64,000 nt of DNA. Source: Podarcis liolepis (taxonomy: Eukaryota). Of the stretch, positions 13,590 through 19,512 are shown in pieces (positions within the stretch are counted from its first letter, which is position 1; every line of letters starts with the position of its first letter). Both the position numbers and the translations under genes were made by a program. The stretch lies in the NCBI GenBank assembly GCA_965112155.1, contig OZ218105.1. The stretch is one strand, 5' to 3'. The notes under the pieces are model-generated. The model was not told the origin of the DNA. It saw nothing but the letters and a program-made list of their open reading frames with translations, and did not search any database.

Positions 13590-13765
13590 TCCTTACTCAG
13601 TTCTATGAAACATGCCTGTGAAATTCTTACAAAGGATCCAGAAGGTGGAGCAGCCCGCATTCCATATGACACTTTTGCATTTATCTATAGCTACTTGGCT
13701 AGCTTAGATGAGGAGATAACGGAGGAATCTACTGAGAAATTCCTCAAGGCTCTTAAAGAACAAGT
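13590..13765 (+). CDS. ROPN1L: ROPN1L coding exon 4
   Basis: ctttttcag acceptor, GT|gtaagt donor; SLLSSMKHACEILTKDPEGGAARIPYDTFAFIYSYLASLD...LKEQ. Confidence 0.96.
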
Positions 13766-14454
13766 GTAAGTATTAATTGGATGTCTGAATGTAATACAAT
13801 CCAGATTTGGCTTGGAACTGCATTTTAGTTAAGCAGGCTCTTTTTATTTGTTCTTCTGAAGCTATGGTTTTCACGATCAGATTAACATATTATTTTTTCA
13901 CCAGTTTTGAAGGAGAATTGCTCTTTGAAGTTTCCCCTGTAGCTGCTTCTTGCAGCTTCTTACAATGTAGTTTGTACAGTTGAGTTGAGAATTTGGTTAC
14001 CGAAAGAAAAAATAAAACAGCAATAAAAAGTTTAAAAAATATTAATAATATTTGCCTGTTTTAAATTGAGAATTAAATTAGAGTGGAAAATATTAATCTG
14101 CACTGAGGCTTATGCTAACCATGGTTACCTTTAATCCTAGCTTGCAAACCAGTTTCAAATTCTGTTTAAAGTCAGCTAGGGTTAGGCTTGCTGCAAACGT
14201 AATTCTACTCAATACTTTAGGCTGAAAAATGAAGGGATAATGAGATTAATGTGGCAGTCGAGAGGAGAAAACGTGCCTTTGTCCTGATCTTTTAACCATG
14301 GTTAAGAGATTGGGAAACTGGCTGTAGTCAGATCTAACAGTAAGCAGTGGTTCAGTGTAATGAAAATGTGCCTAGCCTCCCCCATGCTTGTGTAGGTTCC
14401 CTGCACCCCATCCACTCCTCCAGCATGGCGATAATTAGGACACTGGAAGCTTAG

Positions 14455-14555
14455 GTTCATAGAAAGCTGGGTCCTACTGGGCCATCTAGTATTGTCTATA
14501 CTGATTGGCTTTGGCTCTCAAACACTTCAGGCAGGGAGTCTTTTCCTACTTGGGT
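14455..14555 (-). mobile_element. Degenerate fragment of the tRNA-derived SINE family seen at 22803
   Basis: gggccatctagtattgtctatactgattggc ... tcaggcagggagtcttttcc is the reverse complement of that SINE body. Confidence 0.5.
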
Positions 14556-15315
14556 ATGCTTCCCTTTTAGATTAACCATAGCGTAGCATGTGGTCCAAAC
14601 TCTTGTGTGGTCAATTTTAACTATGGTTAGTGAAAACAAGCCAGCTTCACAAACTATGGCTTGAAGTTGGCTCATTTCCCCTAGCTGTAGTTCAGATTAA
14701 CCAGTTTGTCTGGATTTGGATGATATGGCAAGCCGCACACAGTTAATCTAAAATAGTGGAAGTTTCTAAACTCATGTCAGAGAAAATTGAGTCCATGTGT
14801 CAGCCCAGGGGCAGGCCGTTACATTTGCAATGGGTCAAGATGTTAGACTATTACATCTATGCAGTATTGTGGTATCTAGCATATAATTATGGGGATGGCC
14901 ATGCTTAGAGAAATATATTCAAACTACTTTTCACCTCCAAATACACACTTTCTTTTAGTAAAGGCTGGATATGATATGACCTTAACAGTTCACTACATTA
15001 TAACCCACCTTATTAATAGGGTAATATTAATATATTATTTTGGCTGTTATATTATAATGCTGGTATCCTAGCTTATGGATGATGTACATGATTTAAACAA
15101 GAAGGTAGATTTGAGGATCTAGCTTGTGGAATAGAAATATCCCTATACACATCTCTGAAAATATTACCGTGAGTTCCTCTTATTTTATGCAAATGTTTTC
15201 ATGTTAGAATTGCATCCAAATGGGATGAGAGGAAGTACCACAGAATGAATGTAAACTGAAATTAAGTTTCTTTGGGCATTAATAATGAAAAGTAATACCT
15301 TTTCTTGTAATTTAG

Positions 15316-15373
15316 GTCACGCAAGGAGGATATGGTTGGAGTTGCAGATTTCCGTCCGCTAAAGAAACCTTAA
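15316..15373 (+). CDS. ROPN1L: ROPN1L last coding exon (spliced CDS 651 nt, 216 aa)
   Basis: aatttag acceptor, phase matches exon 4; (V)SRKEDMVGVADFRPLKKP-TAA resembles the RKNGMIGLSDF tail of mammalian ROPN1L. Confidence 0.85.
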
Positions 15374-17420: not shown

Positions 17421-18914
17421 ATGCTGGGTGAAAAATAGCATTGGCTAAGATCAGCATAGGGCCACAGTTTATACTGCCATTACATCAGGGTAAGTGTTCA
17501 CAGGTTGGACTTGTAGCACAATGCTACAACTTCTTAGCAATGGAACCAGGCCTGAAAGCAGTTTCTTCTCATCATAGGTGACTAGATAACTGCATAATTG
17601 CAATGTCCACTGGCTGTAATTCAGCCCAGAGCAGCCAAATCCCAATAATTGTAATGCGACTTAAAACATGCAAACATAGGCTTCCACCTTTTTGCTAGCT
17701 TTACACAGTCTTTAATCAAAGGGTGTCATCATGCACAAAGCAATATGTGGAGTGGGGGAAAGGGTGGAGTAATTCAAGATAGGAGGGAGGGGATGATTAT
17801 GCCTCAGCAAGAGTACCAAATCATTTCATATGTTTTGTGATTTTCAAATATCACACAGTACAGCTGTAACAATTTTCTTCAGACCTTAGTTGACTTTTGC
17901 TGCCAAATCTGCAAAGCGATCACTCATTGTCTGTCAGCTGGGATCTTGACCTCTGTTTCTTTGTTTCTGCAAGGACACATCATAAATTGCAATATTTGTG
18001 TTAGGTCACAGATGTAACATGGTTTTTTGGACATTCATGTGGTAGGGAGGAATAAGCCCATGAAGCATGCAAATGATCAAAACAAACGAGTGTTCCAAAC
18101 CAGAGAGTCATGAAGAACATAAGATTTATTTAGACCAAGGCAATTTAGGCTACAATCCTAATTCCACTTACCTGGAGAGGAAGGCCCATTGATTTGATAG
18201 AACTTAGACATGGTTAAATTTTTGCTGTTATACTATGACCCAACCATGTTTTAAAACATCAAGAAACTAATTAATTTTGAGTTCAGCCAATTATCTATTT
18301 TGAAATTCTTTTTTTCTTTTTTTAACAAGTCTGCTTACTAACCAATTCCTATGACTCGGGGATGGGAAACGATCCGGCCAGGTTAGATCCTTATCTCCCC
18401 AACCATGTGAAGTTTGACAAGTTATGGGGAGTTTTGCAACATTTGAAATTGGTGCAGGGTCTCAAGGTTTTGGTAGATGCACAACATATAATTTAGGGCT
18501 TCATAAAAGCTGCACCTACTGAAACTCCTACACAACAGCAGTAGAGGAGACAAATTCTCCTTTGCATACCTTAATGCAGGGGGTAGTGAACCTTTAAAAA
18601 GCCAGGTGGGCCAGATTGTTGTTTATCCCCACCCCTGTGGGCCAACTGATAGGTGGGCCCACCTGTCAGTCACAAGTCAGCTGGATGTCAGGCTCTTGGC
18701 AAAGCATCTAGCATAGAGCTGCCAAAGCCTCTTTCTGCAGGAATCAGCAGTGTGATTGACTTCCCCATTGATTCAGCTGCATCTCTACTTGTCTGGCATC
18801 ACATATGACATCATGATGGCAGACTTGGCCTGTGGGTCAGAGGTAGGAATGGACAGGTATGCCAGCTTGGGTTTATCCTTACCTCATTTTTCCAGTCTTC
18901 AGTTCTCCACATTT

Positions 18915-19480
18915 TGTGATGGCTTGGGATTCAGATTCAGATGCTGAACCTGAGGAATCCCAGCCTGCACAGGTTCCCCTGCCTCCAGAACCAGCTGAGC
19001 CGGGGCTGGGGCATGAGCCTGAAGGGTCCTCACCTGTGCTGGATGCTCAGGTGCAGGCACCAGCTGAGTCTGCTCTGGCTCCTGAGGTGGTGGAGGACCC
19101 ATTGCCTGCAGGTGCTCCATTCTCAGCCCCATCAGAGGAAACTGGGGTTGCCTCTGGGTCCAGTAACCCTCCAGCCTCTCCTGAGCTGCAGAGGCTCAGG
19201 GCAGAGAGGCGGAGGGAACTAAGTTCCCGCAGGAGGAGTGCTCGCCTCCAGGCCGGGAGAGGCGAGTCACCTGAGGACCGGGGCCACCCTATGCCTCAGG
19301 GCATATAAAAGCCAGCCAGCCCCAGTCCCAAGTTGTGGGAGCAACGTTGGTGGTTCTCAGTCCCTGCCTGAACCTTGCCCAGCCCCCAGCTTCGACTTTT
19401 ACGAACTGCCTTCATATTGTTTCATCGACCACGGGCTGGACTTAGACCTTGCCTCTTGATTAACCCCCGGGACCAGCACA
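18915..19480 (+). mobile_element. Solo LTR (566 bp), probably Ty3/Gypsy type
   Basis: TGT...ACA termini, perfect 5-bp TSD CATTT (18910-18914 / 19481-19485), TATAAAA at 19304-19310; interrupts an older repeat. Confidence 0.85.
18919..19308 (+). CDS. Putative 129-aa LTR (U3)-encoded acidic/Pro-rich protein with C-terminal RRRSARL motif
   Basis: Uninterrupted ORF from ATG 4 nt inside the LTR to TAA overlapping the TATA box; expression unproven. Confidence 0.45.
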   Translation: MAWDSDSDAEPEESQPAQVPLPPEPAEPGLGHEPEGSSPVLDAQVQAPAESALAPEVVEDPLPAGAPFSAPSEETGVASGSSNPPASPELQRLRAERRRELSSRRRSARLQAGRGESPEDRGHPMPQGI

Positions 19481-19512
19481 CATTTCTTCATCTGTTTGTG
19501 ATTATATCTATA

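Follow-up and report, generated by a model that had tools for sequence, protein, structure and literature searches.

The U3 of a lizard chromovirus LTR probably encodes an integrase tail that ends in an HMGN-like RRSARL motif, a candidate anchor for the nucleosome acidic patch

The window analysed in this study is a stretch of 64,000 nucleotides from Podarcis liolepis (assembly GCA_965112155.1, contig OZ218105.1), and all of the features described in it lie on the plus strand. At its centre of interest is a solo LTR of 566 bp (18915-19480) with the ends TGTGATGG...CCAGCACA, which form a terminal inverted repeat (7/8), and with the target-site duplication CATTT on its left (18910-18914) and right (19481-19485). 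These boundaries had been given in a preliminary description that was made from the sequence alone, which was also correct in reporting a frame that runs from an ATG at 18919 through 129 codons (18919-19308) to a TAA (19306-19308) inside a TATAAAA box (19304-19310). By chance, and at this locus only, an in-frame ATG in the flank (18859-18918) lengthens the frame of the window copy to 149 codons. Residues 1-16 (18919-18966) form a conserved acidic block, residues 17-81 (18967-19161) an acidic, Pro/Ala-rich linker that is predicted to be disordered, residues 88-101 (19180-19221) the conserved block PELQRLRAERRREL, which is predicted to be helical, and residues 105-110 (19231-19248) the HMGN-like motif RRSARL, a predicted arginine anchor. 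The stretch that is free of Lys and Arg is real but comprises the first 91 residues rather than about 85, and the motif, which had been placed at 19228-19248, properly starts at 19231, since position 19228 adds one Arg. The U3, whose boundary is predicted via a self-priming site, would extend over 18915-19334; the R/U5 part (19335-19480) differs freely in length among the copies. In the window's subfamily the TATAAAA box contains the stop codon, and in other subfamilies the box reads GATAAAA. Neither AATAAA, as noted earlier, nor ATTAAA is found in the window LTR; the hexamers of both versions of the box are weak polyadenylation variants.

The LTR is a member of the older '129-aa' subfamily of a large family. 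Its first 15 nt occur at least 3,343 times in the genome, compared with 14 occurrences of a reversed control, and a DNA search with the LTR yielded 2,988 candidates, 40 of which were scored and 30 retrieved, mostly solo LTRs with 5-bp duplications. When the polypurine tract and the LTR start were searched for as one sequence, 372 matches were obtained (2 in the control), a few of which were redundant or due to chance. Four full-length relatives of 5,628-5,663 bp have LTR pairs that differ at 0-1 positions, which indicates that the family was recently active. As expected of Ty3/Gypsy elements, these relatives have LTRs with target-site duplications, a gag with a Ty3 capsid and a CCHC knuckle, and a pol in which the Pfam order is protease, RT, RNase H, integrase, Tf2-type SH3 and chromodomain; the window copy is linked to them by its sequence. 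In a 1270-aa frame, PF24626 is found at 1000-1060 and the chromodomain (PF00385) at 1084-1132, at the integrase's C-terminal end after the GPY/F-SH3 module, as is typical of a chromovirus. The cage residues Y-W-Y of the chromodomain are intact, and a search with the chromodomain pattern WEGYGPE returned no match. The nearest protein matches of Pol were lizard, snake, frog and fish elements, and a UniRef Pol labelled Podarcis muralis was 98% identical, tail included, which supports the earlier suggestion of a squamate family. Full-length elements had been named as the means of finding the superfamily, and it is from their gag, protease to integrase domains and chromodomain that Ty3/Gypsy was identified.

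A tRNA primer site is lacking after the 5' LTR. In each of the four full-length elements, the sequence found there is perfectly complementary to 10 nt of the LTR that lie exactly 31 nt downstream of the TATA-like box (approximately 0.004 expected). A self-primer is the RNA's own 5' end, and transcription is predicted to start at 19335, 27 nt 3' of the stop codon and 31 nt 3' of the box; the predicted RNA 5' end and self-primer (19335-19344) has one mismatch in the window copy. Self-priming without a tRNA-type primer site has been described for Tf1/sushi elements in the available text of PMC6317226. Moreover, Sushi-ichi and Amn, which belong to the V-clade of Tf1/sushi, share with the lizard family the Ty3 capsid, CCHC, the PR-RT-RH-IN order, SH3, the chromodomain and the 5-bp duplication, and the lizard end TGTnAnG is close to the published Sushi end motif TGTYANR (PMC3601003). 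Judged by domain order and self-priming, the family is a Tf1/sushi-type Ty3/Gypsy chromovirus. It differs from the known members in that the lizard Pol runs 108-142 residues into the U3 and ends in a helix under selection and RRSARL. With a start at 19335, the frame would lie wholly in the U3, RNA would include it solely as the genomic transcript's 3' copy, and the promoter of a solo LTR would not transcribe it, in agreement with the earlier caveat that the frame lies upstream of its own TATA box. Every solo LTR carries the coding cassette, as had been proposed.

The relation of this frame to Pol was clear in the young elements, in which Pol reads ...GRGDGV|MAWDS... across the polypurine tract and continues for 108-116 residues in the 3' LTR; two full-length frames that bear Pol, of 1270 and 1558 aa, are open into the 3' LTR. 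Among 30 loci from the polypurine-tract search, 22 had the exact junction. The chromodomain and the ATG were 150 nt apart and in frame in 18 of these 22 young junctions, and 16 of the 22 were open over all 504 upstream codons available. The four without this spacing vary in how many G residues one run contains. The run before the polypurine tract is longer in these four (L034, L036, L037 and L039) and would yield an integrase without the tail, which would reflect either slippage or a natural switch. In a second set, 12 of 19 junctions were in frame, including three of the ten copies of older subfamilies; the seven that were out of frame had six different spacings, as expected of decay. These seven include the two decayed full-length members of the window's own subfamily that were recovered, each disrupted by a different lesion, and we infer that this older subfamily was built with the same fusion. 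Because the Pol frame continues into the 3' LTR, the U3 encodes an integrase tail that follows the chromodomain, and we consider it very probable that this is what the frame represents in the family. U3 accessory genes such as MMTV sag or those of the nef type have their own start and their own transcript and are separate from Pol. The preliminary description had drawn a comparison with them and had asked whether the frame is a separate ORF or the tail of pol; the junctions reject the former, since the frame is in phase with Pol and the predicted start of transcription lies downstream of it. The ATG itself is located in the terminal att repeat. Its expected conservation was found within the family, where it is kept in all five subfamilies, but not in related elements, which have V-R (L238, L220) or, in snake proteins, V-V/V-I at this position.

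In a single copy, a frame of this length is plausible by chance. Dinucleotide shuffles produced an ATG-initiated ORF of at least 129 aa in 174 of 2000 cases and an equally long stop-free frame in 654 of 2000, whereas RRSARL appeared in 0 of 2000. The earlier warning that GC-rich DNA opens frames by chance therefore holds for one copy but not for the family, for which chance is rejected by frame retention and pN/pS. Among 70 copies that were taken in genome order and selected by their first 15 nt only, 62 had the helix landmark, and 55 of the 62 kept the frame up to it; the stretch between the ATG and the helix was open in 50 of the 70, and an open frame together with an exact RRSARL was present in 26. 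None of 24 young copies had a change in this motif. The tails are 108, 114-116, 119, 125, 129 or 140-142 residues long depending on the subfamily, with the linker changing by whole codons. Measured against the window copy, 13 of the 18 distinct U3 lengths are offset by a whole number of codons, whereas past the stop this applies to 6 of 25. Net pairwise pN/pS was obtained from 59 of 92 copies in five subfamilies, with frameshifted and rare-length copies left out. The ratio was 0.13 for the helix (CI 0.01-0.32; such intervals bootstrap codons only, and subfamily pairs share ancestry), 0.25 for residues 1-16 (0.28 for residues 4-16), 0.30 for the C-block at residues 82-113 and 0.60 for the linker. 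The linker value ranged from 0.60 to 0.81 across runs, one of which comprised 34 copies and lacked two young subfamilies. In a run without these two subfamilies, Pol from RT to the chromodomain had a pN/pS of 0.07 and the chromodomain of 0.20. The two other sense frames gave 1.1-5.9 over the same blocks. Between subfamilies, purifying selection acts on the tail at both of its ends, and frame preservation, the bias towards whole-codon length changes, the pN/pS of this frame and the conservation of the motif all agree with the earlier proposal that the frame is a coding sequence. Within the window's subfamily, pN equals pS (0.063/0.065), which points to decay after insertion. In the six codons of RRSARL, net pN was 0.004 and net pS was 0.07, compared with 0.27-0.47 elsewhere; this low synonymous divergence makes a DNA or RNA element at these codons possible.

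Tails of a similar design were also found in other elements. Another chromovirus family of the same genome, which is older, decayed and unrelated to the first (approximately 300 candidates; L217, L219, L220 and L222-L251, e.g., G000:C2:124822849-124823649), has a Glu/Trp-rich acidic stretch after the chromodomain that continues into the U3 with the same register; L239 is in frame, and L222-L225 are out of frame. Its LTR frame starts with VMNEPAP and closes with another basic block, SPRSRRMGGLQDRKQ...RKFSCFW, without RRSARL. In public proteins of Rhineura, Crotalus, Vipera, Naja, Salvator and Anolis, the chromodomain is likewise followed by a GDxVM-type junction and then by an acidic tail, which has a basic end wherever the protein is complete. 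All of these proteins are gene models, in which the LTR boundary is predicted from the GDxVM-type junction. Two of the public proteins end in the motif, the Anolis protein P0170 in RRSARIAAK and P0107 in RRSARLAAAH. In both, the motif follows an acidic linker that is itself preceded by the chromodomain and the GDxVM junction, and their tails cannot otherwise be aligned with that of the lacertid family (best E 0.1-0.5). RRSAR[LI] was thus present in 2 of 119 non-lacertid matches with a single chromodomain, compared with 0.007 expected from composition, although the search profiles contained the motif. As one search also had 8,457 matches, P0107 alone could be a product of chance selection. The matches from fish, frogs and fungi mostly have short or non-acidic tails. 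The amphisbaenian tail of P0053 ends in KRGRP, which suggests that chromatin-binding ends differ among lineages; we take KRGRP to be an AT-hook-like core.

We propose, with a probability of roughly 0.55, that the terminal helix and RRSARL act as an HMGN-like arginine anchor that would tether the integrase to the H2A/H2B acidic patch of the nucleosome. According to the accessible text of a cryo-EM study, HMGN2, HMGN5 and Dsup all bind the acidic patch through their RRSAR core (PMC12487698), and in yeast Dot5 the same was shown by mutation (PMC13347269, likewise from the available text). The likeness that the preliminary description had seen is borne out at 19231-19248, as the lizard tail shares with these proteins an RRSAR core with its anchor Arg in a disordered protein. 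It differs from HMGN in that RRSARL is followed by QA or KA (RRSARLQA in the window) and not by SA, and in that it sits on the integrase of a retroelement; no Pfam family matched the tail. AlphaFold2 models of the chromodomain with the tail had a mean pLDDT of 48 (eight sequences), and the helix (158-171) alone reached approximately 70. For HMGN2, AlphaFold 3 is reported to fail (PMC12487698). A retroelement protein that tethers integration to the acidic patch by an Arg anchor has a precedent in foamy virus Gag and, by inference, in MLV p12, as far as the available part of PMC11054761 describes them. These anchors are Gag-derived, whereas the putative lizard anchor would be the integrase itself and is encoded by the LTR. 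In the proposed sequence of events, the mature integrase would keep its tail, the acidic disordered linker would serve as a spacer, and the helix and RRSARL would grip the acidic patch and so tether the integration complex. The chromodomain and the anchor may then read one nucleosome together. When only a solo LTR remains, it would still contain the tail-coding sequence but would be silent and decay neutrally, and the window copy is probably such an ordinary silent solo LTR.

An integrase that extends into the 3' LTR has already been described in plants, in CRM group A (PMC3059260) and in the beet element Bingo (PMC3605345), as stated in the available text of both papers. In CRM, the part that is encoded by the LTR comprises a helix with an Arg-rich motif and a poorly conserved tether, for which chromatin binding was proposed (PMC11302176, available text). 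The lizard family resembles CRM group A in that its integrase continues into the LTR. In other respects the two differ. In the available account of CRM group A there is no chromodomain, the motif is TRARAR/K, it was modelled on CENH3 and the elements are centromeric (PMC11302176). The lizard family keeps its chromodomain, so that there is no CR motif in place of one, and its motif is RRSARL. Its young 3' ends are spread along contigs C1-C5 and may or may not favour centromeres.

The proposed anchor has to be weighed above all against another role of the basic end, namely a nuclear localisation signal or generic DNA/RNA binding, with RRSARL being incidental. An acidic linker followed by basic last 35 residues recurs without RRSARL in P0053, P0134, P0169 and the second lacertid family, and the available text of PMC7459421 describes a bipartite nuclear localisation signal at the end of the Ty1 integrase. 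The basic ends of the snake, amphisbaenian and second lacertid tails, which lack the motif, weaken the case for an anchor and favour a generic basic function, and the presence of RRSAR[LI] in no more than 2 of the 119 non-lacertid matches also counts against an anchor. However, a localisation signal would allow R and K to be exchanged, whereas the motif is nearly invariant in the protein, and exact RRSAR[LI] recurs in tails that are otherwise unalignable. We therefore regard an incidental motif as possible but on balance unlikely, and the two roles are not mutually exclusive. It is improbable that the conservation stems from promoter or RNA signals in the U3 and that the protein tail is a tolerated read-through without a function. 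The low synonymous divergence of the RRSARL codons, the linker ratio of 0.60-0.81 and the ease with which GC-rich LTRs open frames are consistent with such signals, but the helix and the N-block have many synonymous and few replacement changes in the tail frame only, and the whole-codon differences prevail in the U3 and not downstream of the stop. For the helix, this explanation is largely refuted.

A separate accessory protein could also be translated from the LTR ATG, on an RNA that is spliced, starts internally or arises by host read-through of solo LTRs. The ATG has a good context, with G at -3 and +4, and, as described above, it is kept in five subfamilies and the residues that follow it are under selection; in neither full-length copy of the window's subfamily is it in phase with Pol, and several public gene models (P0002, P0016-P0020 and the RefSeq-type P0049) start at this codon. 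We nonetheless consider this origin of the protein highly improbable. The young copies fuse the frame to Pol, the ATG belongs to the att end, the predicted start of transcription follows the stop, and the point at which the frame is fused to gag varies among the gene models, in the manner of prediction artefacts. In two stranded RNA libraries of low depth and possibly from a related species, the internal region was thinly covered, almost exclusively in one orientation, and no splice joint was found in 192 and 173 reads, so that a spliced RNA found no support at this depth. In four shallow runs, whose species label may differ from the species of the window, the unique flanks of the window LTR had no reads on the left in three and on the right in all four. 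The anchor on the integrase tail remains the reading that we prefer.

Reading of an integrase into the LTR is therefore known, but an HMGN-like, LTR-encoded end on a chromodomain-keeping vertebrate chromovirus was not found in the literature that was searched, which comprised neither repeat databases nor subscription papers, and appears to be new. Among the matches listed for RRSARL and the acidic patch, none concerned retroelements by title. The available text of the HMGN structure paper predicts that there are undiscovered HMGN-like binders (PMC12487698). Access to chromatin by vertebrate Ty3/Gypsy elements has been little studied. A tail that does bind the acidic patch would be an integrase-borne version of the Gag strategy of foamy virus and MLV and a parallel to the plant CR motif in which the chromodomain is kept. 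The U3 of this family is under promoter and protein constraint simultaneously. More tentatively, the U3 of squamate and some other Tf1/sushi chromoviruses may be an exchangeable module for targeting the integrase, composed of a chromodomain, an acidic tether and a short chromatin-binding end, in which some lineages independently gained an HMGN-type anchor and hence a two-reader integrase. As the module is part of the LTR and its ATG has a good context, thousands of solo LTRs might then seed lizard genomes with a nucleosome-binding exon that host transcripts could occasionally recruit.

The tail also explains a recurring annotation artefact, i.e., lizard gene models that start with MAWDSDS within LTRs. 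In addition to those listed above, P0168 starts at the LTR ATG; these models join the tail to gag, a receptor gene or unknown exons, and most of them resemble prediction artefacts. Two isoforms are annotated for P0049, whose downstream part has one strong match in the genome, with an internal stop. Several observations were made on the structure and distribution of the copies. One young subfamily (L065 and L067) has a single gag-pol frame of 1558 codons, while another (L064 and L066) has two overlapping frames. The first 100 LTR starts of C1 lie within 15.9 Mb (G000:C1:0.4-15.9 Mb), which corresponds to 6.3 per Mb compared with a genome mean of 2.1; the starts crowded there are mostly old solo LTRs, with the young full-length copies being distributed along the contig. 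Tandem full-length elements with a spacing of approximately 5.0 kb and apparently shared LTRs are present at G000:C2:104475369-104485397 and C3:125381432-125386504. In L031 (G000:C20:12256000-12263000), a decayed full-length copy of the window's subfamily, an LTR of another subfamily is inserted antisense in the integrase region. Apparent LTR pairs on C16 and C4 proved to be duplicated solo LTRs that share their flanks, and solo LTRs were multiplied by tandem or segmental duplication at G000:C4:103.98-104.63 Mb and C16:29.17-29.19 Mb. The translation of the latter region contains what are presumably immunoglobulin-light-chain-like variable segments. Finally, a plus-strand GT..AG splice joint at 13765-15316 of the window, approximately 3.6 kb 5' of the LTR, was seen in three of the four RNA runs.
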